Virus record (IMG/VR): IMGVR_UViG_3300044724_000487
Location: 1-25,546 of that record
Strand: one strand, 5' to 3'
Source of the DNA: a virus
Taxonomy: Duplodnaviria; Caudoviricetes
DNA: 25,546 nucleotides
The position numbers and the translations under genes are program-made. Positions 1 to 19,607 of this stretch are shown here, piece by piece; position 1 is the first letter of the stretch; each line of letters opens with the position of its first letter. The notes under the pieces are model-generated. The model did no database searches. It saw nothing but the letters and a program-made list of their open reading frames with translations, and had not been told where the DNA came from.

Positions 1-139
1 GCTTTATTGCTTTTTTAACTTCCGCATAACTTATTTCGTCGTTATTCTCTTTAAGTCTATCTAACAAATCAAATAATATAAAATATATATCTTTTGCTTG
101 TAGATATCTTTTATCGTCTAATATATTTACTGACTTCAT
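1..139 (-). CDS. Hypothetical protein, 5' part only (runs off the left edge); not in ORF track
   Basis: ATG at 139-137 overlaps the TGA of the upstream gene (ATGA). GGAGGA SD lies just upstream. The frame MKSVNILDDKRYLQAKDIYF... stays open to base 1. Confidence 0.7.
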   Translation of the reverse strand, partial: MKSVNILDDKRYLQAKDIYFILFDLLDRLKENNDEISYAEVKKAIK

Positions 140-459
140 TCTTCCTCCAATTCAAAGTCTGACCAGTCTCTACATTCGCTACATATAGCAACGCCTATGT
201 CTCCGTCTTCTACTAATTCTGTTATAGCGCTACCACCACAACAAGTAGACATCCAAACTTTATCGTCTCTATCTATTATCTGCATAATACCTTCTTCGTG
301 TTCAATCATTTTATCCTCGCATTGTTCACATTGTTTAATATAAATTTTTGGCTCGTCGCCGTCGCAGGCATTCCCGCAGTCGCATTGGACTGCAGGAGTA
401 TATATGCCGTACTTGTCTGCATATTCTTTAGTTGACAAAAATAGTAAATAGTCGCTCAT
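136..459 (-). CDS. Small acidic Cys-rich (probable Zn-binding) hypothetical protein
   Basis: 107 aa with CDCGNAC, CEQC, CCGG and CSEC motifs; SD AAGGAG upstream of the ATG. Confidence 0.8.
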   Translation of the reverse strand: MSDYLLFLSTKEYADKYGIYTPAVQCDCGNACDGDEPKIYIKQCEQCEDKMIEHEEGIMQIIDRDDKVWMSTCCGGSAITELVEDGDIGVAICSECRDWSDFELEEE

Positions 460-490
460 ATACAGACTCCTTTTTGTTGCTTACAAAACT

Positions 491-604
491 TTATGACAGA
501 CAGAGGCGCCAACCTATAAACGTTGCTGAAAGTAGGTATACAAAATTTGTATACTGCTATTCCTTTATCTAGCTTAAATTGTTTACTTAATCTGTCTGCC
601 ATAA
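491..604 (-). ncRNA. Candidate structured RNA or 5' leader: 14-bp closing stem enclosing 3-4 hairpins
   Basis: 491-504 TTATGACAGACAGA and 591-604 TCTGTCTGCCATAA form a 13/14 inverted repeat whose mismatch is G-U on the minus strand. Inner hairpins at 574-590, 556-573 and 536-554. It begins at the predicted TSS of the 608-636 promoter. Confidence 0.5.
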
Positions 605-607
605 TTC

Positions 608-636
608 AATATAATAATAATTTTTAAAAAAAGCAA
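608..636 (-). promoter_or_regulatory. Sigma70-type promoter
   Basis: Minus strand TTGCTT (636-631), 17-bp spacer, TATATT (613-608), with AT-rich upstream DNA; predicted TSS about 601-602. Confidence 0.65.
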
Positions 637-689
637 ATTTTATATCCAGCTATTCAGCTAGTGTTATATATATTTATAAAAAAAATTTT

Positions 690-771
690 TATAGACGTAA
701 AAAAGAAACCGACGATGTTAATGTTTTTAGTTAATATATTAATATATATCAGTATCTTAATTACGTCTATA
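690..771. repeat. 11-bp perfect inverted repeat TATAGACGTAA / TTACGTCTATA
   Basis: Arms at 690-700 and 761-771, in intergenic DNA upstream of the 608-636 promoter. Confidence 0.6.
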
Positions 772-822
772 TTACCTTAGTCTTCGAGGTTTCATTCTTT
801 CTAAGCCCTAAGGTTTTGTCTA

Positions 823-2829
823 CTAAAAGGGAAGGACACCCAGTCGTTCTTCCACTTCTCGTATCTGCTCTCTATATATCTCTACAAGTCTATTGTCTTC
901 AGACGTGTAGGTTATACTTGAACGTTGACTAGCATTTACGTACTCGTCAACTGGTCTACAAATGTAGTCTAAGACATCTTTTGTTTGGAAGTTATACAAC
1001 CAATCAAAGCGACTTAAACCACGTCTAGTTTGTACTTGATTCCAATATTTGAGTCTATTTCTAGAGTCTCCAACTTTGATGAACTCTTGCGTAAGAGTGT
1101 CGAAGTCGTACCAATCTGTAACTTTACCATAACAACGATTTAAGTGGTTACAGTCAAAGTATCTATCGTTACGTCTATCATAGTATCTATTGTAATAGTA
1201 GTCTCTTGTAGACTTTGGTATACTAAATAAGTCCATCATTGCATTAAACGTCAATGCTCTATTCTTCTCTGCAAAAATTACTGACCTATATCCATAGGCG
1301 TAGACCAGAGAGTAAAAGCTGACCTTAGTGTCAAGTCTGTGAAAGTCTCTTAACTTACGATATAATATATGTAAGTCTGGTGTAGACTTCACAAAATGAT
1401 AGTCTTTTAAGACTTCCATGTCGTACTTATTTAGTAGCTGTTTTTCGACGTCTGACAACGGACATTTATCTTCTCTTAAAAGAGAGTCTCGAAAATTAGA
1501 CATAGCCATAGAGACTTTACTCTTTACTATTTCTTCGCCTATTTCGTATGCCTTATCAAAGACTTGAGTCCAAAATATTACCCAATGTTTGATTTTGTCT
1601 GGATTCAAAGTACCACTATGATATCTGATTTCCGTCCCTTGCTTTGCATAAAAATGACAATGCAAGTTCAGTCCGTGATATCTTTTTTCGTGATACTTTT
1701 CGTCGTAGTAAGCACCTGAGTCGTACCAAGTGTCTATGAAGTCATTTCTTCCGTAGACGTGAGTCAAGTGTCCCAAGCTTTGTGATACCGATTGAGACCA
1801 ACGACTATTACGTCTGCTACTTGGTAGCCACGCATAGACGTGAGGCTCAATCATTTTCACAAGTGAACTAAGGACGCTAAAATGTATATAGTCATAATCG
1901 CTTGTGTCTACATGTAAATGCAGACCGCAATTTTGACTAACATAAGCACCTTCGTCTGAAAGAGCTTTACACATAGTACGAATGTCTGCGTCTATAATGT
2001 CTCCACGTCTTGGAGATGTAACGACTTCTACACCAAACGGGTGATTGGAACTCGTTACAGAGGAATCACTTACGACGCTAAATCCGTATTCTCCATGTTC
2101 CCAAGGACGATACCTTTGCTTATACCATTTAGTATGTCTTGACTTATGAAGAGCTTTAGACACTATTTCGTGTACGGCGTTTCTATGACTATCGTAGTCT
2201 GACCATATTTGCTGGTCTAAGTTAATTTCCAACTCTAAGCCGACATTACGTTTACTTTTAATAATGTCGTAAGAGTCTTTCATCCACTTACTAGCGTTCT
2301 TCTTGCTTCTTGACCTATAGTCTAACATCTCAGGGTCTGTCTGCTTGACGATTTTTCCGTCGTGCATACTATACCCAGACATTACTGGTGTTATGAAGTC
2401 ATTTCTTGTCTTTACAAACTCGTTAGACATAACTTCCCATTCGACGTCATCATGACTGCTGTCGTAACAACTTTCACAATTATAATAGTCGGTTCTGTCG
2501 TTCCAGACCATATCGTCTCTGTCGCAAGTGTCTCCACATTCCGAGCAATCGTCGTAACTGTCTTCGTAACAAGCATTGCAAATTGGATTACCATAAGTAT
2601 TATTTTGTGCGTCGTCGCTTCGAGTCTCCTCTCCGCAATCGTCGCAACTTATATAAAGTTCGTCATAGCATTCCTCGCAATGAGCATCTCCGTCATTGTT
2701 AAATGACGTGTCTACTTCGTCCACAGACACTGAACATTCTACGCAGTCGTTTAAGATATCGACTTCGTTGTCCAAAGCGTGATTGACTTCGTCGTTATTA
2801 CTTCTGAACTCAGGAGGCATCTTCGACAC
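823..2829 (-). CDS. COOH-NH2 amidoligase (Amidoligase_2 / glutamate-cysteine-ligase-like fold) with N-terminal tandem Zn-finger repeats
   Basis: Ordered motifs GLELE, DSSV, VEVVTSP, CGLHLHV, RYHGLN, EIRYHSGTL. N-terminal CVEC/CEECY/CDDC/CNACY/CSEC/CESCY. Adjacent to a GATase. True start may be the ATG at 2820 (AAGGTG upstream) rather than the GTG at 2829. Confidence 0.85.
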   Translation of the reverse strand: MSKMPPEFRSNNDEVNHALDNEVDILNDCVECSVSVDEVDTSFNNDGDAHCEECYDELYISCDDCGEETRSDDAQNNTYGNPICNACYEDSYDDCSECGDTCDRDDMVWNDRTDYYNCESCYDSSHDDVEWEVMSNEFVKTRNDFITPVMSGYSMHDGKIVKQTDPEMLDYRSRSKKNASKWMKDSYDIIKSKRNVGLELEINLDQQIWSDYDSHRNAVHEIVSKALHKSRHTKWYKQRYRPWEHGEYGFSVVSDSSVTSSNHPFGVEVVTSPRRGDIIDADIRTMCKALSDEGAYVSQNCGLHLHVDTSDYDYIHFSVLSSLVKMIEPHVYAWLPSSRRNSRWSQSVSQSLGHLTHVYGRNDFIDTWYDSGAYYDEKYHEKRYHGLNLHCHFYAKQGTEIRYHSGTLNPDKIKHWVIFWTQVFDKAYEIGEEIVKSKVSMAMSNFRDSLLREDKCPLSDVEKQLLNKYDMEVLKDYHFVKSTPDLHILYRKLRDFHRLDTKVSFYSLVYAYGYRSVIFAEKNRALTFNAMMDLFSIPKSTRDYYYNRYYDRRNDRYFDCNHLNRCYGKVTDWYDFDTLTQEFIKVGDSRNRLKYWNQVQTRRGLSRFDWLYNFQTKDVLDYICRPVDEYVNASQRSSITYTSEDNRLVEIYREQIREVEERLGVLPF

Positions 2830-3952
2830 CTTCCGAGAATTCGTCTATCATAAGTTCGTCGTCTTCAGGGCTAAACATATTCATTTGTCCCATATTGCTT
2901 ACCACAGACTCAGGGATAACCCTTCCGTCTATAGTGCAATACATCCAAACACCTTCTTCAGAGTCGAAAAACCACTGTTCTGGACTACCTCCGTATATAG
3001 TCGCAAGATTGTCTTGTTCGTCTGCATACCAATTAGAGTCTTTCCAGTCGTCTGGTAGTATAGCATAATCGTTCGCTAGTTCCCACTCTGTATTGCCACT
3101 AATAGTATACGACGTATCTTCAGCATTGTCTTGCTCTGTCCATGCGGACGTAGTGTACGAATTTGTCTTAATATATTGATAGTTATTAAGACCATAGTTG
3201 TAGACTCTTGAATCGTATTTGAATTTAGTCTTTGTCGGATTACTACCTTCTTTGTCAAACTTAGTAATGTCGTAGCTATATAGATTATTTCTATTTAGTT
3301 TAACGACATTGATATCCTTTTCGTCTAACTCTGTAAATAAAAATAGAGGTTGTTCGACGAAGTCTTGTTCTGACGCAAAAAACAAAGTCTCTAAATGTTT
3401 AACGTAAGCAACATATAAAGGTCTATTGGTTTCTCGACACAAGTTCAAGACGTTAGGGTTATCTTTGACAAAAGCCAAAGCAAAGTCGCTGTCGAAATTT
3501 TTAATAGCTGATTGAAAATCGTCGTTTAAGTCTATTGCCCTAAATATTAATTGGCTATCGACGGGACAATTTTTGTTCAGTTTCTTTTCCATTTCGTCTA
3601 TATTATATACGCAACCATTATGAGCACCAACGACGTTGCCTACTCTAAACGGGTGTGCATTTTCCTTAGTAATACTACCAGCAGTCGCGTATCTAGTATG
3701 TCCTATAACAATACGGACGTCATTACGTAGACCTTTGATTACTGAATTGTATTCTTTGGTATCGACAAACTTTGTGCTTTCAAGTAGTGATTTATGTATT
3801 ACGGCTTCATTACCGACGCCTGCTATACCAGACGAGTGAGACCCACGGACTTCAGAGTCCATAGCCATCATACGCATTATGCGTCTGACTTCATCCCAGT
3901 CGTTTTGAGTATAAGGTCGTTGGCTCTTAGCCATTCCATATATTCCACACAT
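2810..3952 (-). CDS. Class II (Ntn) glutamine amidotransferase with acidic C-terminal extension
   Basis: N-terminal MCGIYG nucleophile, then GHTRYAT, NAHPF, AHNG and VDS motifs; SD AGGAG. Confidence 0.92.
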   Translation of the reverse strand: MCGIYGMAKSQRPYTQNDWDEVRRIMRMMAMDSEVRGSHSSGIAGVGNEAVIHKSLLESTKFVDTKEYNSVIKGLRNDVRIVIGHTRYATAGSITKENAHPFRVGNVVGAHNGCVYNIDEMEKKLNKNCPVDSQLIFRAIDLNDDFQSAIKNFDSDFALAFVKDNPNVLNLCRETNRPLYVAYVKHLETLFFASEQDFVEQPLFLFTELDEKDINVVKLNRNNLYSYDITKFDKEGSNPTKTKFKYDSRVYNYGLNNYQYIKTNSYTTSAWTEQDNAEDTSYTISGNTEWELANDYAILPDDWKDSNWYADEQDNLATIYGGSPEQWFFDSEEGVWMYCTIDGRVIPESVVSNMGQMNMFSPEDDELMIDEFSEGVEDAS

Positions 3953-3983
3953 AGTCTATTCTCCTGTTCTTTTGTTAACGTTC

Positions 3984-4086
3984 TCGCTACGTCCGACCTG
4001 TCGTAGCGACCTAAAATTCTTTGTAGACAACGCCCTGCTATAAAGGACGTTCAATGAGTAATAAAAAATGCAGGGCTTATTGTCTA
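3984..4086 (-). promoter_or_regulatory. Two stem-loops in the GATase leader
   Basis: TCGCTACG/CGTAGCGA (3984-3991/4002-4009). TAGACAA/TTGTCTA plus GCCCTGC/GCAGGGC (4024-4038/4070-4086). Confidence 0.5.
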
Positions 4087-4101
4087 TTCTATTCATATCG
4101 T

Positions 4102-4428
4102 CTATCTGTAAGAGTCCTTGCCAAGTTCATATATAACTTCTGTAAGCATTTGTCGTACTTCTCTAGTATGTTTTTTATATATGCTATCAACGTCTAATAG
4201 GGTTTCAACTACTCTAGCAAATTTAGACTCTAATGTATTGAGTCTAAGATTTGAGACATTATGTTTATTGTAGAAGGTTGAGATTGCAGACTTCAACTCT
4301 ATAGTCTTAGTACGCAGTCTTTCGACCTCTCTATCTAGCTGGTCGATTTCTAATTTTGTGTCTATGTTTACCATTAGTCTACCTTTCTTAGTTATGACGC
4401 TAATCTTATTTAGCGTCTTTGTTTTCAT
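4102..4428 (-). CDS. Hypothetical coiled-coil protein
   Basis: 108 aa with a heptad-like helix (LEIDQLDREVERLRTKTIELK); overlaps the end of the upstream gene. Confidence 0.7.
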   Translation of the reverse strand: MKTKTLNKISVITKKGRLMVNIDTKLEIDQLDREVERLRTKTIELKSAISTFYNKHNVSNLRLNTLESKFARVVETLLDVDSIYKKHTREVRQMLTEVIYELGKDSYR

Positions 4429-4876
4429 ATCCTAGTCGTTCGTGCTTGTTAGCTAATCTAACGTGTTTACGACTAGCTTTGTCTAGTATGTCGCCATACC
4501 AATCAAGTCTTGTATTACGCTCTTTTGTCGTATCTTTAAACCAATCATCAAACTCTAGTCTGTTGATTGTTGTCGCAGTAGCAAATTTAGACTTTGCTAT
4601 TTCTACTGAAAATCGGTGATTAAGTCTGTGCATTTTAAATGCGACGTTCTTAATAAACCAATGTACATCTTTCATTGACGTCGCTTCGTGTAGCATTTCG
4701 TCGTTTACAAAGTGGTTATAAATGATTACATTCCACGTCTTTTGTTCGTTGTCGTTAGGGACAACATATACTGAAATACTACGTGGCAACGTCTCAATTT
4801 TTATTGTTTCGTAGACTTTGTGTTTATGTCCGCAAGAACATTCACACGTCTTTGAAGTTGTTATTGTGTCGCTCAT
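4406..4876 (-). CDS. Hypothetical protein, first gene of the leftward operon
   Basis: 156 aa with N-terminal CECSCGHKH; GGGA SD; promoter upstream. Confidence 0.75.
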   Translation of the reverse strand: MSDTITTSKTCECSCGHKHKVYETIKIETLPRSISVYVVPNDNEQKTWNVIIYNHFVNDEMLHEATSMKDVHWFIKNVAFKMHRLNHRFSVEIAKSKFATATTINRLEFDDWFKDTTKERNTRLDWYGDILDKASRKHVRLANKHERLGYENKDAK

Positions 4877-4924
4877 TGTTTCCCGTCGTTTATTTGTTTA
4901 TATATAGGTATTATAACCCGTTTT

Positions 4925-4953
4925 AAATTATCATTTTATATTGAATAAAACAA
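4925..4953 (-). promoter_or_regulatory. Sigma70-type promoter with extended -10
   Basis: Minus strand TTGTTT (4953-4948), 17-bp spacer ending TGA, TAATTT (4930-4925). Confidence 0.5.
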
Positions 4954-5188
4954 ATAAAAATTTATAGAGATAAACCCTCAATTTTTTTGTTTATCTATCT
5001 AGCTAATCGAAAAAATTTTATAAAATATGCGACGTTATTTTGTAGACAATTCTTAAGATTCTACAAATTTTAATGTTTGCTATGTGTTTTATAATGTGTA
5101 TTTGATTTAGACGTATTATTTGGACTTTTACGGATTTATGTCTATATTCACTTAATTAATAATAATCAATTACAAAGGAGTAATTAAA

Positions 5189-5614
5189 ATGAGTATAAAA
5201 AATAAAAGTAATGATGTAGTAAATCCCGAGATAGCAAAAGTATCAAGGGAGTATTTTAATAGCCAAATGGACAAGTTTGAAGAGCAGGGCGAGAAGTTTA
5301 AATTAAAGCCCGAAGTAGTCCAGAGTATGAAAGATGACTTTGCAAGTACGCACGCTATTAAAGGTACGAAATTAGATTCACACTTAATAAGATTAGGCAA
5401 TGTAGATGAAAAATATAAAAAGTTCATTTCTGGTACATTAGACGAACTTTTAGATTTTAATCTATTGCTTATCGTTGACGGGGTTAAACTATCCCGTAAA
5501 AAAAGAAATTCAACAATAGAAACTGAAGGAGTTCCCCAATTAAAGTTAGTTGTTGAAGTTGTTGATGAAGATAAACTTGATAGCAAAAGAGAGGAGTTGA
5601 AGGCACAGGCATAG
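5189..5614 (+). CDS. Hypothetical protein, monocistronic
   Basis: 141 aa; AAGGAG SD; TATATT at 5143-5148 as a possible -10; followed by a terminator. Confidence 0.8.
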   Translation: MSIKNKSNDVVNPEIAKVSREYFNSQMDKFEEQGEKFKLKPEVVQSMKDDFASTHAIKGTKLDSHLIRLGNVDEKYKKFISGTLDELLDFNLLLIVDGVKLSRKKRNSTIETEGVPQLKLVVEVVDEDKLDSKREELKAQA

Positions 5615-5646
5615 TATATATATAATCAGTTAGTATATATCACAAT

Positions 5647-5679
5647 GACGGCGATTCTTCTTAGGTCGCCGTTTTTGTT
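5647..5679 (+). terminator. Rho-independent terminator
   Basis: GACGGCGA / TCGCCGTT stem followed by a T-rich tail, about 30 nt after the stop of 5189-5614. Confidence 0.8.
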
Positions 5680-5780
5680 ATATGTCTATATCTAGCAAGG
5701 TAGATAACTATTAATGAGATTCAGCTATTGTATTTTTGGAAAGTATTTTGAAAGGGCGATTTATCTCTAAAATTGCAAGA

Positions 5781-5808
5781 TTTGCGCATAATATATATTA
5801 TGTATAAT
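5781..5808 (+). other. dif: XerC/XerD dif-like recombination site 1
   Basis: TTTGCGCATAA-TATATA-TTATGTATAAT versus E. coli dif GGTGCGCATAA-TGTATA-TTATGTTAAAT; same 11-6-11 layout, 23/28 identical. Confidence 0.75.
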
Positions 5809-5811
5809 TGA

Positions 5812-5839
5812 AATACGTATAATAAAGATTATGTATAAT
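5812..5839 (+). other. dif: XerC/XerD dif-like recombination site 2
   Basis: AATACGTATAA-TAAAGA-TTATGTATAAT; XerD-side arm identical to site 1, CGTATAA-type XerC-side arm, different spacer. Confidence 0.7.
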
Positions 5840-6070
5840 CCAAACCCCTCTTAGGATTTTTAAGCTTCCCCTTCCCTTTTTGGAATTTTCAACCTAATTT
5901 TAGAATTTCTAATTGGAAAAAGACCGCACCCCATATTGGAAAAAAAGAAGCGAACACAATAATGTGCAATTTTTCAACCAAGTGCGGCGGTTTGGCTTTT
6001 TTTGTATAATATTATTTTTTTTGTGGGTTGTAAAAAATTTTCGGCGGTAAAATTGAGGAAGAGGGTCTCT

Positions 6071-6136
6071 AGAGCACCGAGTATTATTTAAGAAATAGAT
6101 TTAATAAGTATATTTTTATAAGAGCACCGAGTATTA
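6071..6136. repeat. 16-bp perfect direct repeat AGAGCACCGAGTATTA, two copies
   Basis: Copies at 6071-6086 and 6121-6136, separated by 34 very AT-rich bases. Confidence 0.85.
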
Positions 6137-6220
6137 GAAAGTACGAAGAAAAGTTTTTTTCTGTCAAGATATTTCTTACCTGTTGTTAAAGATTTATTTT
6201 TATTTATTTGTATTATTTAC

Positions 6221-6250
6221 TTGACTGCTGTAAGAAAATGAATGTAAGTT
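6221..6250 (+). promoter_or_regulatory. Possible promoter for the rightward operon
   Basis: TTGACT, 18-bp spacer, TAAGTT; about 60 bp upstream of the ATG at 6313. Confidence 0.4.
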
Positions 6251-6312
6251 GCATACACAAAAGATAAACGTACATATTTTTATGTACACATTTACTAACT
6301 GGGAGAGTAAAT

Positions 6313-6612
6313 ATGATTAGAAAGTTAAAAATTGGTGGTCATCCGTATGAAATATTGGTTTCAGACCTAAAACATGAAGACCCAACAAAAGAATTGTACG
6401 GTAGACACGAGGTAAGAGAGAATATTATATACATAAACGATACTATAGCACCTTCTAGAATGGAAGAAACACTTATACACGAGGTTTTACACGCTATTTT
6501 CTATAATAATGGCTTAGAACACGATGAAAGACAGATAGAAGCTATTAGTAATGGTTTATTTCAGCTAGGAATAGGAGATTATCTGTGGAAGAAATCAGAA
6601 AAGCAATCTTAA
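6313..6612 (+). CDS. Small zincin (HEXXH) metallopeptidase-like protein, ImmA/IrrE-like
   Basis: ETLIHEVLHAI motif plus downstream Glu (HDERQIE); GGGAG SD. Confidence 0.8.
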   Translation: MIRKLKIGGHPYEILVSDLKHEDPTKELYGRHEVRENIIYINDTIAPSRMEETLIHEVLHAIFYNNGLEHDERQIEAISNGLFQLGIGDYLWKKSEKQS

Positions 6613-6770
6613 AATTCAAAAGTCTAGGTAGAACTGATATTGTGCAGAAATTGCAACAAGAATTAGATGCTCTTGAAAAAATAAATAAAAAGCTAGATTG
6701 GAAAAGGTATGAAAAATTATTAAGAGAGCAGGAAGATAGGCCTGATAAGGAAGATTTCTACAAAGAATGA
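6585..6770 (+). CDS. Hypothetical protein
   Basis: 61 aa, GTG start with AGGAG SD; ATGA overlap with the next gene. Confidence 0.7.
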   Translation: MEEIRKAILKFKSLGRTDIVQKLQQELDALEKINKKLDWKRYEKLLREQEDRPDKEDFYKE

Positions 6771-6955
6771 GAAAAAGGTTAACTACGGGATTAAAAGAAT
6801 ATGATAAGTTTTCAGCTTATACAAACCCTGAAGGTGTAGAAGAAGCAAAAGAGGTAGAAGCTTTGTTACACTATGACCTAGATAGAGAAGATAAGATAAT
6901 CGACGAGATGTTTGTAGATACGCCGTCATATAAAAGGAAAAAGAATGACAAATAA
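6767..6955 (+). CDS. Hypothetical protein
   Basis: 62 aa, tiled between neighbours with short overlaps. Confidence 0.65.
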   Translation: MRKRLTTGLKEYDKFSAYTNPEGVEEAKEVEALLHYDLDREDKIIDEMFVDTPSYKRKKNDK

Positions 6956-7148
6956 CGACCAAATACTAAGCATGATAAAAGAGAGGCTTGACATCGGCGC
7001 CAAAAAATACGGCGAACAAGTGCCGATTGACGGAACGCGTGACAATCTGAAAGAGAGCATTGAGGAATTATTAGACCTTTGTGTTTATTTATCTGCTGTT
7101 GCGTTAGAATTACATAAAAATTATACTAATAATGAAAGAGGCAAGTAA
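6945..7148 (+). CDS. Small all-alpha MazG/NTP-pyrophosphatase-like protein
   Basis: R...G..KYG followed by the acidic motif ESIEELLDLCVY. Confidence 0.55.
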   Translation: MTNNDQILSMIKERLDIGAKKYGEQVPIDGTRDNLKESIEELLDLCVYLSAVALELHKNYTNNERGK

Positions 7149-7879
7149 TGGCTAAAAACAAACTATGGACAGATGAAGAGATAGTAATACTACATCAGTA
7201 TGAAAAGACAAATAAGTCTGCTTTTCAATTGTACCAAGAGGTAAGACTAGCTGGATACAATAGAACGTATAAAGCAGTAACAAGAAAGATAGAAGCTTTA
7301 GGGTTTAGAAAACCAAAAAGATACAAAACTGGACACGAAATCAGTATTGGATACTTAGACATAGAATCTACTGGATTTAGTGCTAATATTGATGTAATGC
7401 TTTCTTGGTGTATAAAAGGAAGAGGCGTAAAAAAAGTTGCTGGTGCCTGTATAACAAGAGAAGAACTAATGTCAGAAAAGTCAGATTCTCGTATTGTTGA
7501 GCTTTTAGTAGAAGAAATGAACAAATACGATGTTATTATGACTTATTATGGTACTAGGTTTGATATTCCGTTTATAAGAACAAGAGCGTTATATCATGGA
7601 ACATACTTCCCTATGTATAGACAAAAGTCGCATAAAGACCTATATTATGTTGTAAGGTCAAAATTAAAGCTACATCGTTCTTCATTGATGGCTGCTACAG
7701 AGTTTTTTGGTATTGATGGTAAAACAAGAATCAAACCAGAATACTGGCAAAAAGCAAGATGGGGCGATAAAAAGTCTTTAAAGTATGTATATGACCACAA
7801 TGTCGCAGATGTTGAGATATTAGAGTTATTACATAGAAAACTAGAAGAACATGCACCGCCAATGGTAAGACCACTGTAA
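7148..7879 (+). CDS. DEDD 3'-5' exonuclease (RNase_H_2/YprB-like) with N-terminal Myb/HTH-like domain
   Basis: ExoI LDIESTG, ExoII YYGTRFDIPF, ExoIII HNVADV; N-terminal WTDEEIVIL...RTYKAVTRKIEALG. Confidence 0.85.
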   Translation: MAKNKLWTDEEIVILHQYEKTNKSAFQLYQEVRLAGYNRTYKAVTRKIEALGFRKPKRYKTGHEISIGYLDIESTGFSANIDVMLSWCIKGRGVKKVAGACITREELMSEKSDSRIVELLVEEMNKYDVIMTYYGTRFDIPFIRTRALYHGTYFPMYRQKSHKDLYYVVRSKLKLHRSSLMAATEFFGIDGKTRIKPEYWQKARWGDKKSLKYVYDHNVADVEILELLHRKLEEHAPPMVRPL

Positions 7880-7890
7880 AAGGAGAGAAT

Positions 7891-8124
7891 ATGGCTAATA
7901 AAGAAGAAAAACTAGTTATAATGAACGATGGCAAAGAAATAGAGTTTGTTATGTCTGATTTGTCAGACGAGGCGAAAGCGCAATATGCTAGAGCTAATGA
8001 ACTTGCAGGTCAGCTTATGCAAATAGACCGACAAGCAAATGAAATAAGATTTCTTGCCAATAACTATATTAGATTCGTAATCGACGAACTTGAGAAAGAC
8101 GTTGACGAAAAAGAAGAAAAATAG
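7891..8124 (+). CDS. Small coiled-coil protein (DUF6447-like)
   Basis: DGKE...SDLSDEAKAQ followed by a long helix; AGGAG SD. Confidence 0.6.
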   Translation: MANKEEKLVIMNDGKEIEFVMSDLSDEAKAQYARANELAGQLMQIDRQANEIRFLANNYIRFVIDELEKDVDEKEEK

Positions 8125-8131
8125 TTAAATT

Positions 8132-8887
8132 ATGCTAGAACGAGTTGTTAAAGGTGTGACACACTACCTTTACGAGAGTCAAGAAGAGTTTAGGGAGTAT
8201 CATAAAGATATATCTTTAGTAACTGATTGGAGACATTCGAATAAAGGAGATTGGATTTTAACTGATGATGGTAACATATGTCAGGTTTTGCATTTAGGTA
8301 TTTTAAATAAATCTAAAAAAGAAACCACGTTTATAAGAACTATTGTAGGTTCTTTCGTATGTTCTGACAAAGTTAAGCTAGTAGGTCCAATGAGAACTAA
8401 TATGCACACCTTTTCAACCGATGGAAAATCTCCTTCTGTTAGAAAGAAAGAAAGAAAGCATGCTACTGAAAAAGAATTTTTGTTTAGCAAGTATGTGGCA
8501 AAAGGAGATGATGTTGTAGACGCGTATATGAAAGCTTTTCCTAGCAAGAAAGAAGACTATGCTAAGTCTCAAGCAAAACTATTATTAAAAACAGATAGGG
8601 TGAAAACATTGATTAGAGAAGAAATAGACAAATATTTAAACGAAGCAGAGATAACTCCTCTGTATTTATTAGAAGAAATGCGTCATATAATAGATAAAGG
8701 CGGTACTTCTGATAGAGATAAATTAACAGCAATAACAACATTAATGAAACTTTCTGGTATGATGGACACAGATAAACAAACAGAATCTGTAACATTGTTC
8801 CAAGGTTTTACAAAGGAGCAACTAAATGCAATTCAAGGGAAAGAAATCAAAAAACTGGAAGAAGTTGAAATCACACGCGAGAAGTAA
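8132..8887 (+). CDS. terS: Terminase small subunit with N-terminal extension of about 110 aa
   Basis: C-terminal half follows the Terminase_2 pattern (KEFLFSKY...DAYMKAF...AKSQAKLLL...ITPLYLL...DKLTAITTLMKLSGM); upstream of TerL. Confidence 0.7.
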   Translation: MLERVVKGVTHYLYESQEEFREYHKDISLVTDWRHSNKGDWILTDDGNICQVLHLGILNKSKKETTFIRTIVGSFVCSDKVKLVGPMRTNMHTFSTDGKSPSVRKKERKHATEKEFLFSKYVAKGDDVVDAYMKAFPSKKEDYAKSQAKLLLKTDRVKTLIREEIDKYLNEAEITPLYLLEEMRHIIDKGGTSDRDKLTAITTLMKLSGMMDTDKQTESVTLFQGFTKEQLNAIQGKEIKKLEEVEITREK

Positions 8888-9053
8888 GCGCTGTCATATC
8901 TGCTTATATCATTTAAAAAAAACTGCTGTATATATTTGGGATATTAAAACCAAAGATACTAATAGATTAAAATGTATTAACTGCCTAACGATGTATGATT
9001 CTGATTTTGAAATTACAGACTTGGGAATAGTAAGAGAGTTAGGTTATTCATGA
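8826..9053 (+). CDS. Small Zn-ribbon protein; start uncertain, probably further downstream
   Basis: CHIC...CINC pair; ATGA overlap with the next gene. Confidence 0.6.
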   Translation: MQFKGKKSKNWKKLKSHARSKRCHICLYHLKKTAVYIWDIKTKDTNRLKCINCLTMYDSDFEITDLGIVRELGYS

Positions 9054-9451
9054 GATTAGCAGTATATGGAACTCTTAGAAGAGACTATCCAGACAAAGGA
9101 AAAATAAAAGGATTTAGTTTAGTATTTCCAGGAACACAGTCTTTTCCTGCAGTAATTAAGAATGAAAAAGGAAAAGGAGCTGTTGTAGAACTTATGGATG
9201 TAACACAAGAAGACCTTAATATGTATGATGAATATGAAAATGTTGATGGAGGTCTATATATAAGAACTACCGTAAATGTAGAACTAGACAACGGTGAAAT
9301 CGAAAAAGCTTGGATTTATGTAGCTGGACCAAAGATTTGGGAAAAGTCAAAAACGTTTACTGAAGTGCCAGAAGGAGATTGGCATTCTATGAAAACGTTA
9401 ATTATGTTAGATAGGGTATATGAAAAAAAGTACGAAACCACAACCTTTTAA
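9050..9451 (+). CDS. Gamma-glutamylcyclotransferase (AIG2/GGACT-like)
   Basis: AVYGTLR, then YDEYE...GLYIR...AWIY and EGDW motifs. Confidence 0.88.
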   Translation: MRLAVYGTLRRDYPDKGKIKGFSLVFPGTQSFPAVIKNEKGKGAVVELMDVTQEDLNMYDEYENVDGGLYIRTTVNVELDNGEIEKAWIYVAGPKIWEKSKTFTEVPEGDWHSMKTLIMLDRVYEKKYETTTF

Positions 9452-11003
9452 TATAATACCTCCTGACTTAAGTCAAAAAGAAAAAGCTCTGGAGCTTGCT
9501 AAGAAAGACATAATTACTTTTGGCCAAATGTTTATGCCAGAAGATTTTATGAAATCATCGCCTGCTCCATACCAATATGAATTAAGTGATTTGTTGTTAG
9601 GAGATGAAAAAAGAGCTTGTATAATACTTCCTAGAGGTCACGCTAAATCCACTTTAGCTAAAACTGCTTTACTTTATCAGTTGTATTTTGCTCCTCCTGA
9701 AAAGAAGCAGTTTATTGCCTGGGTATCAGAGGAACAGTCTCAGGCAATAGACCATATTAAATATATACAAAATCATATTGATGTAAATCCTGCATTACAA
9801 TATTATTTTGGAGATTTAAAAGGAAGTAAGTGGACAGAGAAAGAATTTACCACAGCTAGAGGAGATAGAATTATAGCGAAGGGAACAAGTCAAAGATTGC
9901 GTGGTCGTTCTCAATTAGGACTACGATATACAAACATAATTCTAGATGATTTTGAATCAGAATTAAATACTAAAACACCAGATAGAAGGAGAGAAATAAA
10001 AGAATGGGTAATGTCTACGGTAGAGCCCGCATTAGAAAACTCAAAAGAAAACGAAGGGTCAATATGGCTTATTGGTACAATAGTCCATTACGACTCTTTT
10101 CTTCAAGGAGTATATGATGGATGGCTAGATGCTGAAAAAGAAGGAAGAAAGTCTGCTTGGCAAGTATTATATAAGAAAGCTATAGTAGACGATATTCCTT
10201 TATGGCCCAACTATTTCTCAAAAGAAAAACTTAAAGATATAAAAAGAAGGTTTACAGAGATGGGTCTTGTTCACAAGTTTGCTCAAGAGTATCTTAATGA
10301 GGCAAGAGACTTAGAAAATGCTAAGTTTATGATAGATAGAATTAATTACTACAGAGGTCATGTAGAAAACAGAAATGGATTTAACTATATGATGATAGAC
10401 GAATCTGCTATACCAGTAAATGTATACATGGGAGTTGACTTAGCATATGAAGCAAATGCTAAAAGCGATTATCAAGTAATTGTAACTATTGGAATAGATA
10501 GCGATAGAAACATATATCTAATAGATTATTATAGAGAACATTCAGCATTATATGATATGCCTCAACGTATCATAAGTATAGCAAAAAAATATCATCCCGT
10601 AAGAAGAGTTAATGTAGAAAAAGTTGGGGCGCAAGGATTAATTAAAGACCATGTAAATAAGTTAGCTGGTTCTGACAGAAAGTTGGCTCCTGGGTTATCT
10701 CAAGGAGTAAGACCGCCTGGTGGTATAAAAAAAGAAGATAGGTTAGAAACATTATTGTGTCCTATAGTAAACGGACGTAAGTTATTTATGAAGAAAGAAC
10801 ATCAAGATTTGATAGATGAGATGTTTGAGTTTCCAAAAGGAAGAAACGATGACCTTCTTGATGGATTATGGTATGCTGTAACCACAGCAAAGCCTCCTCG
10901 AAGTAATGCTATTGATAGAACTAAATTCGAAGAAAGATTGACGAATAGTGAAAAAAGTGTTACATCTAGAGCAGTAAGTTGGATTACTGGTCAAAAAATA
11001 TAA
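9420..11003 (+). CDS. terL: Terminase large subunit
   Basis: Walker A PRGHAKST, Walker B IILDDFE, coupling motif IGT, nuclease GVDLA and DDLLDGL. Confidence 0.95.
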   Translation: MKKSTKPQPFNIIPPDLSQKEKALELAKKDIITFGQMFMPEDFMKSSPAPYQYELSDLLLGDEKRACIILPRGHAKSTLAKTALLYQLYFAPPEKKQFIAWVSEEQSQAIDHIKYIQNHIDVNPALQYYFGDLKGSKWTEKEFTTARGDRIIAKGTSQRLRGRSQLGLRYTNIILDDFESELNTKTPDRRREIKEWVMSTVEPALENSKENEGSIWLIGTIVHYDSFLQGVYDGWLDAEKEGRKSAWQVLYKKAIVDDIPLWPNYFSKEKLKDIKRRFTEMGLVHKFAQEYLNEARDLENAKFMIDRINYYRGHVENRNGFNYMMIDESAIPVNVYMGVDLAYEANAKSDYQVIVTIGIDSDRNIYLIDYYREHSALYDMPQRIISIAKKYHPVRRVNVEKVGAQGLIKDHVNKLAGSDRKLAPGLSQGVRPPGGIKKEDRLETLLCPIVNGRKLFMKKEHQDLIDEMFEFPKGRNDDLLDGLWYAVTTAKPPRSNAIDRTKFEERLTNSEKSVTSRAVSWITGQKI

Positions 11004-11011
11004 TATTTATC

Positions 11012-11041
11012 TTGACAACAACGTCGTAAAGTTGTTATTTT
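11012..11041 (+). promoter_or_regulatory. Promoter for the head operon with an embedded palindrome
   Basis: TTGACA, 18-bp spacer with extended TG, TATTTT. Inverted repeat AACAAC/GTTGTT (11017-11022/11031-11036) lies in the spacer. Confidence 0.6.
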
Positions 11042-11067
11042 AGACGTAAAATACAAATTGGGAGTAT

Positions 11068-13047
11068 ATGGCAAACTACGACGAAAAGAAAAACAAACCT
11101 CAGATATCTAAAGAATTGTTTAGGCGTTGGAGAGACGCAAGAGAACAATGGGACGCTGAAGCAAGAAATGCAGTAGATTTCACTTTAGGAAATCATTATA
11201 GTAATGAAGAATCAGATGCTTTACAATCAGTAGGGCAAGCTGACTTTGTTATTGATAGAGTTTATGCTGCTGTTGATAAATTAAAATCTTTACTTACAGC
11301 TAGACCCGCTAGATTTTCTGTTATAGCAAGAGAAGACTCAGATAATAAATTAGCAAACGTTTGGAGAACTATACTAGAATATGTATGGGATATCTCTAAC
11401 GGAGACAGCACTTTCAAACAAGTAGTGCATGACTATGCTGTTACTGGACTGGGATATATGTATGTATATGTAGACCCTGATGCCGACTATGGAAGAGGCG
11501 AGGTAAAGTATACGCACGTAGACCCTTTTAGAGTGTATGTAGACCCAGCATCAAGAGATAGATTTTTTAACGATGCATCAGGAATGATATTGTCTACCTT
11601 TTTAACCAAACAGCAAGTATTAGACTTGTATCCACAGTTAGAAGAAATGATTGACGATATAGAAGTGGGTGTAAACTCTCTTTACGGAGAAGATTATCCT
11701 ACATCAAATCTAAAGAACAGTAATAACGTTCTTACTCCAGCTGAGGCAAAGGACTTAGATTACAATGTAAATCAAAAATATCAAATACTTGACAGATTTT
11801 ATAAAGTAAGAGTTCCTTATTATAGACTGTTTAACACTTTAACTGGAGCAGAAAAAATTGTTGACCCTGAAATTTATCTTCAGATATTACAAGAGCCAGA
11901 AACAGAAAAAGCTATTAAATCAGGAGCTATACAAATTGAAGAAATACAACAAACAAGAATTGCACAATGCAGTAGCATTGGAGACACATTATTATACGAG
12001 CGTGTTTTAAATACTGATATATATCCAATTGTTCCTTTTACGAACATTTGGACAAATACTCCCTATCCAAAGTCAGATGTGAACAAGGTTAAGGACTCTC
12101 AGAGACTTTTAAACAAGTTATTCTCTTTGACCTTGTCGCACGCTCAATCTGCTGCTGGATTAAAACTTTTAATTCCAGAGGGTAGTGTTGATAGTGTTAG
12201 TCAGTTAGAAAAAGATTGGGCAAATCCAAATGCGGTTATTGAATATAATCCAGAATTTGGTGAGCCACATTACCCACAACCAGCTCCTTTAACTAGTGAG
12301 TTTTATTATTTAATTGATAGGGTAGAAAAATATATAGATTTAAACTTTGGTATACCTGAGCTTTTACAAGGATTCAAAGATAACGCTCCTGAGTCTGTTA
12401 GAGGTACAATGCTTTTATCAGAAATGGGAGAATCAAGAGGTAAATCAAAGTTAAGAGATATTGAAGCAAGTTTATCAATGGTAGGTCAAGTAGTTTATAA
12501 TTTATGTAAAGACCACTATAGATTTGCAAAAACATTTAGAATTGTACAACCAAATAATGATATTACTGAATTTTCAGTTAATATGAGACTGTATGATGAT
12601 AAACGAAATGAACTGTTAACTATAGAGAATGATATTCAACTAGGTCAGCATGACATTCGAATTATATCAGGTTCAACTTTGCCTAGCAACAAGGTATCTG
12701 AATACAACATGTATCTTGATGCGTATAAACTTGGACTGGTAGATGATGTCGAGGTTTTAAAGAAAACTGAAATCTTTGACAAAGAAGGTGTTCTTCAAAG
12801 AAAAGGACAAATGGCACAAATGCAACAGTATATCACACAGCTTGAAAATCAAGTTAAGAAGCTAAGTGGTGATTTACAAACATCTGAACGTGAGCAGGTT
12901 TCTTCTAGAAAACGCACAGAAGTTGAGAAGTTTAAATCACAATTGAGCGAAATTAAAAGCTCTACGAAAGCTAAAGAAAAAGAAAAGGTGATGCAATTAG
13001 GCATGATGGTAGACCAGATGGGACAATCTTTGGAGGAAGAAGAATAA
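11068..13047 (+). CDS. Portal protein, P22-like, with long C-terminal coiled coil
   Basis: 659 aa directly after TerL; F.LGNHY, YAVTGLGY, VDPFRVYVDP, YPIVPF, KDSQRLLNK; Q/K-rich C-terminal helix. Confidence 0.9.
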   Translation: MANYDEKKNKPQISKELFRRWRDAREQWDAEARNAVDFTLGNHYSNEESDALQSVGQADFVIDRVYAAVDKLKSLLTARPARFSVIAREDSDNKLANVWRTILEYVWDISNGDSTFKQVVHDYAVTGLGYMYVYVDPDADYGRGEVKYTHVDPFRVYVDPASRDRFFNDASGMILSTFLTKQQVLDLYPQLEEMIDDIEVGVNSLYGEDYPTSNLKNSNNVLTPAEAKDLDYNVNQKYQILDRFYKVRVPYYRLFNTLTGAEKIVDPEIYLQILQEPETEKAIKSGAIQIEEIQQTRIAQCSSIGDTLLYERVLNTDIYPIVPFTNIWTNTPYPKSDVNKVKDSQRLLNKLFSLTLSHAQSAAGLKLLIPEGSVDSVSQLEKDWANPNAVIEYNPEFGEPHYPQPAPLTSEFYYLIDRVEKYIDLNFGIPELLQGFKDNAPESVRGTMLLSEMGESRGKSKLRDIEASLSMVGQVVYNLCKDHYRFAKTFRIVQPNNDITEFSVNMRLYDDKRNELLTIENDIQLGQHDIRIISGSTLPSNKVSEYNMYLDAYKLGLVDDVEVLKKTEIFDKEGVLQRKGQMAQMQQYITQLENQVKKLSGDLQTSEREQVSSRKRTEVEKFKSQLSEIKSSTKAKEKEKVMQLGMMVDQMGQSLEEEE

Positions 13048-13051
13048 ACAA

Positions 13052-13082
13052 TCGTGGTTCGGAGTTTTAGACTAAATCACGA
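13052..13082 (+). promoter_or_regulatory. Stem-loop abutting the scaffold SD
   Basis: TCGTGGTT / AATCACGA stem (one G-U) followed directly by AAGGAG. Confidence 0.5.
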
Positions 13083-13096
13083 AAGGAGAAAAAAAT

Positions 13097-13864
13097 ATGG
13101 CAACAGAACAAGAACAACAACAGGTTGAACAGCAAGACCCAATAGTTGAAGGAGCTGGAAATGAGCCTACTATTTCAGTAGAACCTCAACTCGAAGAAGG
13201 TGTGGAAGCATCTGAAGCGGTAGATTGGGAAGGAGAAGCTAAGAAGTTTCAATCCATGTACGATAAAAAGGTTGCAGAGCACGAAAATCTAAAAAAAGAT
13301 AGTAATGATTTACTACAATTAAGACAAGTGTTAACTGAAAAACCTGAATTAGTACAGGTAATTGAAAAAAGCCTTGCTGGAGAATCTATTGAGGAACAAA
13401 GCGCTGAGAGTTCAACTCCAGAAGACTTTGACCCTTGGGATGCCTATTACAAGCCAGACTCTCAATCTTACAAATTTAGAGTAAGTCAAGAGAAAAAGCT
13501 TGTACATGAAACAGTAGATAACGAACTAGCTAAACTACAAAGTCAGATGGCGATGAATAATTTAAAAACAGAATTGGTAAGCAAACACAACTTAGGTTCA
13601 GATGATGCAGAGAAGTTTTTACAATTTGCAACAACACCTAAAGCAAACCTTCCTATTGAAACTCTTATTAAAGTGTGGAAAGAAGGAGAAGGTAAGGCTA
13701 ATAAAGTAAATGAAAACTTAGAAGCTGTGCAAAAAGCAAAGTCAATTCCTAAACCAGCTGGTGTACTTCAAGGTGGTCAACAACCACAAAAAACTGAAGA
13801 AGACCAAGTATGGGATAGAGTTATGAGCGCTGGAAGAATAGGTAGGATAGCTAAAACTAACTAG
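13097..13864 (+). CDS. Capsid scaffolding protein
   Basis: Acidic, helical, low-complexity 255 aa between portal and capsid. Confidence 0.75.
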   Translation: MATEQEQQQVEQQDPIVEGAGNEPTISVEPQLEEGVEASEAVDWEGEAKKFQSMYDKKVAEHENLKKDSNDLLQLRQVLTEKPELVQVIEKSLAGESIEEQSAESSTPEDFDPWDAYYKPDSQSYKFRVSQEKKLVHETVDNELAKLQSQMAMNNLKTELVSKHNLGSDDAEKFLQFATTPKANLPIETLIKVWKEGEGKANKVNENLEAVQKAKSIPKPAGVLQGGQQPQKTEEDQVWDRVMSAGRIGRIAKTN

Positions 13865-13872
13865 GAGTTAAA

Positions 13873-15243
13873 ATGGCTTTTAACAAAGGACAACTAAAGT
13901 CATCACAAATTACAGCAGCTTCAACAAGCGCTGGATACGGACAGGCTCCAGACCAAAGAAAGCTGTATGATTTCTCTGATAGAGTTGCAGAACTTATGCC
14001 AGAGGAGTCACCTTTTTTCGTCTATCTAAGTCAAGTTGCTAAAGTAGCTACTGACGATAATATTTTCAGATATCTTGAAAATAGAACTGTCACAAACTAC
14101 ACAGCACGTAACTTTAGCTTAGCAGCCGACGTAAACGGCGGCAGTGGCGTAACTGCAGGAAATCTTTATGATTTTACTGTAGATGACGGCGCTGGTGCTG
14201 CACCAGGGTTTATTACCAAAGGAATGGTAATAGCTGTAAAAACTGTGGATGACACAAACGGTTATGGACAAGCATTAGTTAGAGTTGAGTCTGCACCAAA
14301 CGTTCAAGCAGCAAACTCTACCTTCTCAGGTAGAATTGTTGAACTATCAAATTCTAGCATTAGTGGCTACAATGTTTTATCAGACAATGATGAAGCACAA
14401 ATTGTAGGTACTTCTTTTGAAGAAGGAACAGGTTCACCTGATACTTTCTCAGATACACTAGAAGATGATTTTGGTTATACTCAAATCTTTAAAACAGCTT
14501 GTGAATTAACAAACACAGCAATAGCTACAAGATACCGTGGCTATTCAAATGAGTTCGAAAGAATTTGGGCTCAAAAACTACGTGAACACAAAGTAGACAT
14601 CGAAAGAGCTATGCTTTTCGGTCAAAAAGCTCGTGTTAACGGAGTACAATACACTGAAGGTCTTGTTGGACACATTGTAAAAAATGTTGCTCCAGTAACT
14701 GACAATTCAGCATTTTCATATTCATCAGGTGCGCCTTATTACAGAAGTGTAACTCAGGCTGAATTAACTTATGATAGATTACTTGCTGACTTAGAGGTTA
14801 TTTTTGACCCAGCAAGAGGCGGTTCAAGTGAAAGACTTGTATTAGCTTCATTGCCAGTAATTACATTCTTCAACAAAATGGGCGACGGTGCTTTCATTGA
14901 TGCTTCTGTAGGTCAATCATCATCTCCATTCAGAGTAAATATGAACAATGTACAAGGTTCCTTTGGACACAATCTAATGGAAATCAACACTGTACACGGT
15001 TCTATGTACTTAGTGAAAGAACCTCTATTTAGAGGAATTGCTAGCGGCTTCATGCTTATGGCTGATATGTCTAAATTGGCATACAGACCATTAGTTGGAA
15101 ACGGTATTAATCGTGACACTCAAATTATGACAAACGTACAAAATGCGGATGAAGATTTGAGAAAAGACATGATTCTTACTGAAGCTGGTCTAGAAGTTAC
15201 ACTTCCAGAATGTCACGCTCTATATAACGTGGAGGGATTATAA
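13873..15243 (+). CDS. Major capsid protein (HK97 fold, SU10/DUF5309-like)
   Basis: 456 aa after the scaffold; PEESPF, YTQIFKT, HKVDIERAMLFG, TEAGLEV motifs; AGGAG SD. Confidence 0.88.
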   Translation: MAFNKGQLKSSQITAASTSAGYGQAPDQRKLYDFSDRVAELMPEESPFFVYLSQVAKVATDDNIFRYLENRTVTNYTARNFSLAADVNGGSGVTAGNLYDFTVDDGAGAAPGFITKGMVIAVKTVDDTNGYGQALVRVESAPNVQAANSTFSGRIVELSNSSISGYNVLSDNDEAQIVGTSFEEGTGSPDTFSDTLEDDFGYTQIFKTACELTNTAIATRYRGYSNEFERIWAQKLREHKVDIERAMLFGQKARVNGVQYTEGLVGHIVKNVAPVTDNSAFSYSSGAPYYRSVTQAELTYDRLLADLEVIFDPARGGSSERLVLASLPVITFFNKMGDGAFIDASVGQSSSPFRVNMNNVQGSFGHNLMEINTVHGSMYLVKEPLFRGIASGFMLMADMSKLAYRPLVGNGINRDTQIMTNVQNADEDLRKDMILTEAGLEVTLPECHALYNVEGL

Positions 15244-15244
15244 A

Positions 15245-15685
15245 ATGGCAAGAGGTAGTATACTAGAAAAAAATAGTGGTAACGGTGGATATTTATTACC
15301 AGTAGAAAAGATTTCTGCAGCTAAGACTTTAGATGCAGTTTCTGATAGCGGCAAGATTTTTGTTGTTGCTAATGCTGGTAGCGGATATTCCATTACACTT
15401 CCTACAACTTTAGAAGTTGGTACTCAGTACAAACTTATCTTCGAAGACTCACCAAATGCAGCAGTCACTATCGCAGCTGGCTCAGCAATTATTTTTGGTA
15501 AAGTTGTCGAAGGAGAAGTTGACACATCAGACGATGCACCAGGTTCAGCTGGCGCGACAGGAGTTTCAAATGTAATTTTTGGAACTACAACTGATGAAGG
15601 TGACCATCTTGACATCGTATGCGATGGTACAAAATGGTACGTCAACGGTATGACAGCTGTAGATGGAGCGGTAACCACATCATAA
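15245..15685 (+). CDS. Probable capsid decoration or minor head protein
   Basis: Gly/Ala/Thr-rich beta-type protein (DSGKIFVV...ITLP...CDGTKWYV) directly after the capsid gene. Confidence 0.55.
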   Translation: MARGSILEKNSGNGGYLLPVEKISAAKTLDAVSDSGKIFVVANAGSGYSITLPTTLEVGTQYKLIFEDSPNAAVTIAAGSAIIFGKVVEGEVDTSDDAPGSAGATGVSNVIFGTTTDEGDHLDIVCDGTKWYVNGMTAVDGAVTTS

Positions 15686-15694
15686 TATAGTTAT

Positions 15695-15733
15695 TAGGTA
15701 CTATGGAGTGGGCAGGTCCCACTCCGAAACCTA
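15695..15733 (+). other. GC-rich stem-loop without U-tail
   Basis: TAGGT-ACTAT-GGAGTGGG-CAGGT-CCCACTCC-GAA-ACCTA. Confidence 0.6.
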
Positions 15734-15761
15734 TAAAGAATTTTAAATAATAGGAGATAAA

Positions 15762-15959
15762 ATGGCAAATTATAACGTAGTAACTAAAATTATTATTGGG
15801 AATTTAAGCCCTGATGCAGATTCTGTGTCTGGTTCTTTAGCTAAAGAAATTACAGACTATATTGAAACACTAGATGATTCTACTGGAGCAATTATAGATA
15901 TACAAGCTGTAGAGCTTGACAGAGGTAGAATTGCATATATTATAGTTCACAAAGGATAA
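15762..15959 (+). CDS. Hypothetical protein
   Basis: 65 aa; AGGAG SD; TAATG overlap with the next gene. Confidence 0.75.
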   Translation: MANYNVVTKIIIGNLSPDADSVSGSLAKEITDYIETLDDSTGAIIDIQAVELDRGRIAYIIVHKG

Positions 15960-16213
15960 TGGCTAACTGTCAACATTGTAGTGAGCCTAATCCAGAAGGA
16001 TACTTTAATTGTCCTTCATGTGGGCTCAGAGCAGCTCCTAGTAAATGGAATACTAATTTTGTTATCAGAGAGGGAAACCCTATGGCAACAGCAATTAGAA
16101 AAGACTTGATTGATATAAACCATATGTCTATGGACGATGGTATTAAAAAAATGCAAGAAAGTAAAAAGAATGCAAAACCCACACCAAGTGGGAAGGGAAT
16201 AAGGGTAATGTAA
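15959..16213 (+). CDS. Zn-ribbon protein
   Basis: CQHC...CPSCG at the N-terminus. Confidence 0.75.
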   Translation: MANCQHCSEPNPEGYFNCPSCGLRAAPSKWNTNFVIREGNPMATAIRKDLIDINHMSMDDGIKKMQESKKNAKPTPSGKGIRVM

Positions 16214-19605: not shown

Positions 19606-19607
19606 AG

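Follow-up and report, generated by a model that had tools for sequence, protein, structure and literature searches.

The window (that is, the whole 25,546-nucleotide stretch of DNA that was analyzed) belongs to an SU10-type podovirus: it encodes an SU10-type capsid protein, a P22-like portal, a terminase, an amidoligase, and a glutamine amidotransferase. The leftward early arm and the rightward late arm of the genome diverge from a noncoding gap upstream of terS, and this gap contains two 28-bp dif-like sites in direct orientation, each with an 11-6-11 layout. Site 1 (positions 5781–5808, plus strand) consists of a XerC arm, a TATATA spacer, and a XerD arm; site 2 (positions 5812–5839, plus strand), separated from site 1 by a 3-bp linker (positions 5809–5811, plus strand), consists of a degenerate outer XerC arm, a TAAAGA spacer, and a XerD arm identical to that of site 1. 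These tandem sites were described in the first-pass annotation of the sequence, and their coordinates are borne out. A loose 10-letter core pattern has two matches in the window as compared with 0.25 expected (2 of 100 shuffled sequences reach two); site 1 presumably also matches E. coli dif at 23 of 28 positions.

The ORF directly upstream of the array, F9 (positions 5189–5614, plus strand; 141 aa), has no assigned function: it has no family, fold, or atlas match, and its predicted structure (pLDDT 77, pTM 0.48) has no significant match in the PDB or BFVD. An intrinsic terminator-like hairpin (positions 5647–5673, plus strand), located 3′ of F9 and retained in all eight aligned close relatives, may insulate the array from F9 transcription. 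Between the hairpin and the array are two TYYAGCWA boxes (positions 5691–5698 and 5720–5727, plus strand), with a third at positions 4998–5005; these are candidate sites for an accessory protein, with 59 copies in 43.9 kb of dif-bearing intergenic regions vs 36 in 104 kb of dif-free regions, the loci not being independent of one another. The early arm starts with ORFs F7 (positions 4406–4876) and F13 (positions 4102–4428), which span positions 4102–4876 on the minus strand. The start of the late arm (positions 6313–11003, plus strand) encodes an M78-like peptidase (6313–6612), an exonuclease (7148–7879), TerS (8132–8887), and TerL (9420–11003). A short direct repeat with the core GAGCACCGAGTATTA occurs at positions 6071–6088 and 6122–6138 (51 bp apart), 5′ of the first late gene, and possibly represents late-promoter or packaging signals. 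Genes for the amidoligase, the glutamine amidotransferase, and a gamma-glutamyl cyclotransferase are found at positions 823–3952 and 9050–9451, a set known from phiEco32-like phages.

In metagenomic data, a 370-bp Logan contig from an estuary run (X1, possibly the source sample of the window) covers positions 5537–5906 with zero differences. Site 2 is polymorphic in nature, that is, contigs from X1 and two other runs (X2 and X3) diverge from the window immediately after site 1. The array is uncovered in an RNA run (X18), which is uninformative.

A 28-of-28 match between site 1 and dif of small-genome Marinimicrobia

The proposal in the first-pass annotation that the sites are mimics of a host dif is upheld: site 1 is identical at 28 of 28 positions to the commonest dif allele of the small-genome Marinimicrobia, as found in a 0.97-Mb chromosome (G007, locus L110) and in two further genomes (G295, locus L137; G246, locus L374). 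Site 2, compared by eye with dif of host genomes G337 and G187, is identical at 25 of 28 positions, including the entire spacer and XerD arm. When positions 1–20000 of the window were compared by blastn with the 38 genomes of a single Marinimicrobia family, 21 genomes had a total of 24 matches; 21 of these 24 fall on the two mimics (the best is 100% identical over 32 bp), and only 28–32 bp of sequence are common to the window and the hosts. Among 2.9 million viral contigs, only 16 contain the exact host-family consensus, and 11 of the 16 belong to this phage family.

The host site is a true chromosomal dif as judged by its position: it is single, intergenic, located at a flip in GC skew, and approached by converging KOPS-like motifs. 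The Marinimicrobia dif pattern is present in 126 of 401 genomes (once in 122 of these), as compared with 4 of 401 for a reversed-pattern control. The skew changes from plus to minus at the site in all 12 Marinimicrobia loci with at least 3 kb on each side, and KOPS-like GGGNAGG motifs point toward dif in ratios of 37:1 and 89:14. In two single-contig chromosomes the site is 52% and 53% of the way around from dnaA; in a third, it is only 160 kb from dnaA. The hosts encode two tyrosine recombinases of ∼305 aa for which the best models are XerD and XerC (the scores are just under the cut-offs), and four of five hosts encode FtsK-gamma. In 23 of the 38 genomes of the family, dif adjoins leuS and a gene that we designate H0; a dif contig of this family was found at depth 43 in run X1, the same estuary run that contains the phage.

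An exact-pattern scan of GTDB genomes identified at least 120 loci; by record title, the matches listed include 37 Marinimicrobia, 15 Desulfobulbia-type bacteria, 15 PVC bacteria, 10 alphaproteobacteria, 8 Wenzhouxiangella, and 35 that are other or unnamed. Site 1 is also identical in three genomes of the PS1/OCS116 alphaproteobacteria, and because these share the site we consider Marinimicrobia to be the likely, not the certain, host. The PS1/OCS116 alphaproteobacteria are less likely hosts: the site is present in 6 of 25 genomes, always with the TATATA spacer and in one with an arm variant also found in phages L006/L010, and no skew flip occurs at the site in the PS1/OCS116 locus L169.

On the XerC side, dif in small-genome Marinimicrobia abuts a hypervariable defense island (loci L364–L379 and L422–L430) that contains genes for type I, II, and III restriction-modification, GmrSD, Schlafen, HNH, DndB, and NucS; the gene set on this side (left of dif) differs in nearly every genome of the host family. 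Immediately to the left of dif, several host genomes have a short conserved sequence in common, and in G194 two copies of dif-H0 lie at the ends of two contigs, a pattern that would be expected if XerCD had inserted cassettes. In Vibrio, Xer-hijacking elements are described as accumulating on the XerC side of dif (10.64898/2026.06.12.731946). On the XerD side, H0 (222 aa; no match in Pfam or NCBIfam) starts nine bases beyond the terminal TATAAT of the XerD arm in the host (e.g., L372:10024–10035), so the host arm may be used as the −10 box for a nearly leaderless H0 transcript.

Phage spacers and host dif alleles

The first-pass annotation guessed that two spacers could serve two host dif alleles. 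In agreement with this guess, TATATA and TAAAGA are both chromosomal dif alleles within one Marinimicrobia family: in 23 genomes, the spacer is TATATA in 15, TAAAGA in 2, a third allele in 2, and one of three more alleles in 4 (the count omits three pattern matches, two of which are in another gene context). Across the Marinimicrobia, the XerD arm is fixed but the spacer of dif is unusually diverse, with well over ten alleles counted by eye; dif is near leuS in 10 of the 11 loci L431–L441.

Host variants other than TATATA recur in the phages. TAAAGA is present in a second phage lineage (L029/L030; TerS 73% identical), in the opposite order in the array; the third host allele is present in phages L049/L050; and phage L033 carries a one-base variant of the XerD arm that is found in five host genomes. 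In total, two of the eight minor phage spacers are found among the five minor host alleles, and the other six match no sampled allele of the host family. This overlap has p values of 0.008–0.043 under neutral nulls and 0.22–0.40 under nulls from the observed column frequencies; we regard it as suggestive, not decisive.

Conservation of the array in related phages

We collected 80 TerS relatives and retained the 51 with at least 2.6 kb of upstream sequence, dropping the other 29. Conservation at this locus, raised as a check in the first-pass annotation, is partial: 15 of the 51 keep one to four sites there, and 36 have no site. The 15 dif-bearing relatives (about 10 independent lineages, since five pairs share identical TerS) have their sites between F9 and F3, 2.3–3.2 kb upstream of terS, as arrays of two to four copies in 10 and as a single site in five. 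A TATATA copy is retained in all 15, and the 28-mer is an island of conservation within flanks that are ∼50% identical; sites are kept across TerS identities of 68–91% and also in relatives at 35–50%. Within the arrays, the XerD arm is nearly invariant and the spacers vary freely. Neighboring clustered copies are spaced 29–54 bp from start to start (the maximum in the family is 246 bp); because this spacing varies, the copies are not helically phased.

Of 16 dif-bearing loci, 15 have F9 upstream of the array (in the 16th, the contig end cuts F9) and 12 have F13, which is present in 0 of 36 dif-free loci. The dif-bearing phages occur in three places on the TerS tree, whereas dif-bearing copies of F9 form one branch (SH-aLRT 99); we conclude, therefore, that F13-F7-F9-dif moves as a unit. 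In the relatives, the array is flanked by phage genes on each side, and three dif-bearing contigs cover the entire early arm and both junctions. The early arm encodes an exonuclease, RusA, and DnaB, with no polymerase in G003; all of the dif-bearing genomes are incomplete (64–85%). A 71.6-kb contig rated as 100% complete (IMGVR_UViG_3300030012_001696; L394–L397) is a chimera with two sets of terminase, portal, and capsid genes, and a 71.7-kb contig (L398–L401) has a similar two-phage look from its ORF layout. Among GenBank phages, we found no TerL relative at an E-value of 1e-30 and no meaningful match to the pair of sites.

Marinimicrobia-type dif mimics also occur in other, unrelated marine phages. 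In a second group (L242/L243, L236/L237, L266/L267, L282/L283, L219/L220, and L246), two direct-orientation mimics with different spacers are located 2.0–2.7 kb apart and flank three to five small genes, with the right mimic ∼100 bp before a sigma-like gene, terS, and terL; these pairs are pdif-like modules in a phage. In a third group (L457, L458, L462, L467, and L469), the mimic has the arms of small-genome hosts and a spacer unseen in the sampled hosts, and it again closely precedes a sigma-like gene, terS, and terL.

Searches for a recombinase, a repressor, and an integrated phage

None of the 34 proteins in the window matches an integrase family, so the statement in the first-pass annotation that no integrase appears in the window stands. 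In relatives, no tyrosine integrase (PF00589) was found in 10 contigs (all dif-bearing genomes being incomplete), and neither a resolvase (PF00239) nor an HTH_3 repressor was found in five contigs; F9, F13, F7, and F3 match no VC1465/Xaf model for a Xer activator in NCBIfam.

The first-pass annotation also suggested that the phage may integrate at dif; our searches, mostly of fragmented MAGs or SAGs, gave this suggestion no direct support, that is, none identified a prophage or an attL/attR junction. A TerL search of 401 Marinimicrobia genomes gave three distant matches (31–33%), none at dif; capsid and GATase searches gave no matches in 38 host-family genomes and 233 genomes, respectively; and no phage proteins were found in 160 bacterial dif loci. 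Of the tandem matches, 14 viral and 22 from metagenomes (1 and 9 of which, respectively, were set aside as simple satellites or unrelated), none connects an array to a host flank. Comparison of loose contig ends from four runs with the window and the host dif locus gave no junction, a weak result because contigs drop rare variants. The closed Marinimicrobia chromosome G008 (positions 190000–240000; L443–L445) contains a podovirus-like prophage with a TerL and portal that are ∼30% identical to those of the phage and an HTH-S24 repressor; this distant prophage is far from dif and has no dif-like site. The prophage searches identified no member of the phage family itself.

Discussion

The array is real, functional-looking, and informative about the host. 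In our preferred reading, which we give about even odds (a probability of roughly 0.5), its copies are alternative attachment sites for XerCD-mediated integration into hosts with different dif alleles. Host XerC would bind the left arm and host XerD the right arm; if strand exchange needs matching 6-bp centers, each copy would pair with its own allele and not with its neighbor, and XerC/XerD could insert the circularized phage genome into dif of whichever allele the infected cell carries. With the crossover in a noncoding gap, no phage gene would be broken and a working dif would be left beside leuS; the inserted phage would lie on the XerC side, where the variable defense island of the host already sits. 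The inserted state would probably be short-lived and excised at division, because the phage copy is a perfect dif, and fast excision could explain the missing prophages. Xer sites with different centers are described as recombining with identical copies and not with each other (10.1101/758037), and homology in the spacer/overlap region as deciding Xer partner choice and the compatibility of IMEX (integrative mobile elements exploiting Xer; 10.64898/2026.06.12.731946).

The points in favor of alternative attachment sites are the identity with host dif, the match in alleles, the conservation, and the lack of a detected recombinase. The main counterargument is the failure to find a prophage or a junction; the relatives without a site (36 of 51), the allele overlap, which is not significant under observed-frequency nulls, the chromosome with its site only 160 kb from dnaA, and the lack of a match to an HTH_3 repressor or a Xer activator also count against it. 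In addition, the mimics of unrelated phages are just upstream of terminase genes and often have spacers unseen in hosts, which also fits a packaging-linked role.

Such a role defines the strongest rival, which we consider unlikely: host XerCD would act between site copies on phage DNA, tied to the genome ends, to circularize terminally redundant DNA once it has been injected or to resolve circular multimers. The spacers would then differ only because identical neighbors would be lost by unequal exchange, that is, the differences could merely stabilize the array. Genome ends are often near terminase genes, as in P1, where loxP is near pac, and in phiEco32/SU10-like phages, which have terminal repeats at this junction. 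The position of the array at the early/late divergence, shortly upstream of terS, fits this role, as do the mimics that closely precede terS/terL in three or more unrelated phage groups (eight loci annotated), a replication that relies on the host polymerase with phage DnaB and RusA, and the missing prophage. However, contig ends do not cluster at one place (an end shared by L062 and L067, at −3301 from terS, was rejected as a signal of a terminus since the neighboring genes differ), and partition genes were not seen in the early arm. Multimer resolution, also proposed in the first-pass annotation, is disfavored because KOPS-like GGGNAGG motifs point away from the phage site (6 toward and 15 away in 13 non-independent loci), and an FtsK-driven dimer-resolution site is rejected since these motifs do not converge on it. 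A match with host spacers would be needless for recombination between phage copies, yet a TATATA copy is retained by all 15 dif-bearing relatives and two minor host alleles recur; self-only recombination needs no host spacers but chromosomal recombination does, and we therefore favor the attachment-site reading.

The remaining alternatives dispense with recombination. The array might only bind proteins, like the decoy suggested in the first-pass annotation, and recruit or titrate XerC/XerD, stall FtsK, or unload SMC-type complexes (XerD unloads SMC); the number of copies would then be important and the spacers would drift in the absence of strand exchange; the nearly invariant XerD arm, the freely varying spacers in up to four copies, and the six minor spacers without a sampled host match would agree with this. 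We judge it quite improbable, because the copies show no helical phasing, every dif-bearing relative retains one spacer that fully matches the host, a lone site is enough for five relatives, and the 3-bp gap may prevent occupancy of both sites. Far less probable still is that the repeated units are tandem −10 boxes for the late operon, an alternative named in the first-pass annotation: each right arm does end in TATAAT and face the late genes, but no −35 box 16–18 bp upstream pairs with either TATAAT, the region contains 7 promoter-like sites vs 9.9 expected, the next ORF starts 474 bp downstream, and the whole 28-mer, left arm included, is the terminus site of the host, so that the arm in question is the host's own dif arm. 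We give equally little credence to functionless, captured host DNA; the patchy distribution would be explained, but only the short site itself is common to phage and hosts, and it is conserved while its flanks diverge.

Mobile elements with more than one Xer site and differing spacers are familiar from pdif modules and from the multimer-resolution sites of plasmids (cer, psi). In pdif modules, a pair of sites flanks a gene; here the sites are 3 bp apart (246 bp at most in the family) with no cargo gene between them, so we rejected a pdif module for this array. The array resembles the attP of an IMEX in being an 11-6-11 dif-like site compatible with host dif; no recombinase was found in the window or in the relatives searched, whose genomes are incomplete, and no integrated form was found at host dif in the genomes searched, most of which are fragmented. 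The closest known system is LME-1, a T7-like Legionella phage described as integrating at dif as an IMEX of the single-recombinase dif/XerL system (PMC9765430, PMC12407071): LME-1, too, is short-tailed, its dif mimic is the same as the host sequence, and it is described as using the host recombinase. LME-1 has, as described, one 22-bp att, a 30-kb genome, and XerL, and it has been seen integrated; here, the sites are full 28-bp XerC/XerD-type sites in arrays of up to four with different spacers, in genomes of ∼48–50 kb, and integration was not seen.

Other likenesses are more distant. The Vibrio TLC-phi, VGJ-phi, CTX-phi, and dif-type double jelly-roll prophages are described as having a dif-like attP and no integrase, with partner choice set by overlap-region homology, and classical CTX-phi as able to use two dif alleles of one host (PMC9226527, PMC5357621, PMC12715192, 10.64898/2026.06.12.731946). 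According to these sources, however, they are non-tailed or satellite elements that each have a single attP (in CTX, a single-stranded one formed by the folding of two sites), and TLC and VGJ encode Xer activators, for which we found no match here. For the enterogokushoviruses, passive XerCD integration, dif motifs that are patchy in the family, and prophages that are rarely found, attributed to easy excision, are described (PMC7062461); these differ in being small ssDNA phages with a single motif for which integration is shown experimentally. The oral phage of 10.1101/633727 is described as an inovirus. In the literature searched (mostly non-subscription papers), we came across no description of dif sites in phages of Marinimicrobia or of arrays matched to host alleles.

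A possible, still tentative, extension of the attachment-site reading is an arms race in which streamlined Marinimicrobia alter the 6-bp center of dif and a family of integrase-less tailed phages replies with a 'key ring' of tandem mimics, one per allele. A changed center would lock out XerCD-hijacking elements beside the host defense island. If this is true, the host range of a phage among uncultured bacteria could be read from its set of spacers.

The array provides a sequence-level host link for an abundant, uncultured family of marine phages. A single bacterial family has several versions of the dif center, and matching versions are found in phage arrays. Should the sites prove to serve for attachment, tailed phages that have no integrase and are classed as lytic could be temperate, and a core site of chromosome segregation would be a place of co-evolution between host and phage.
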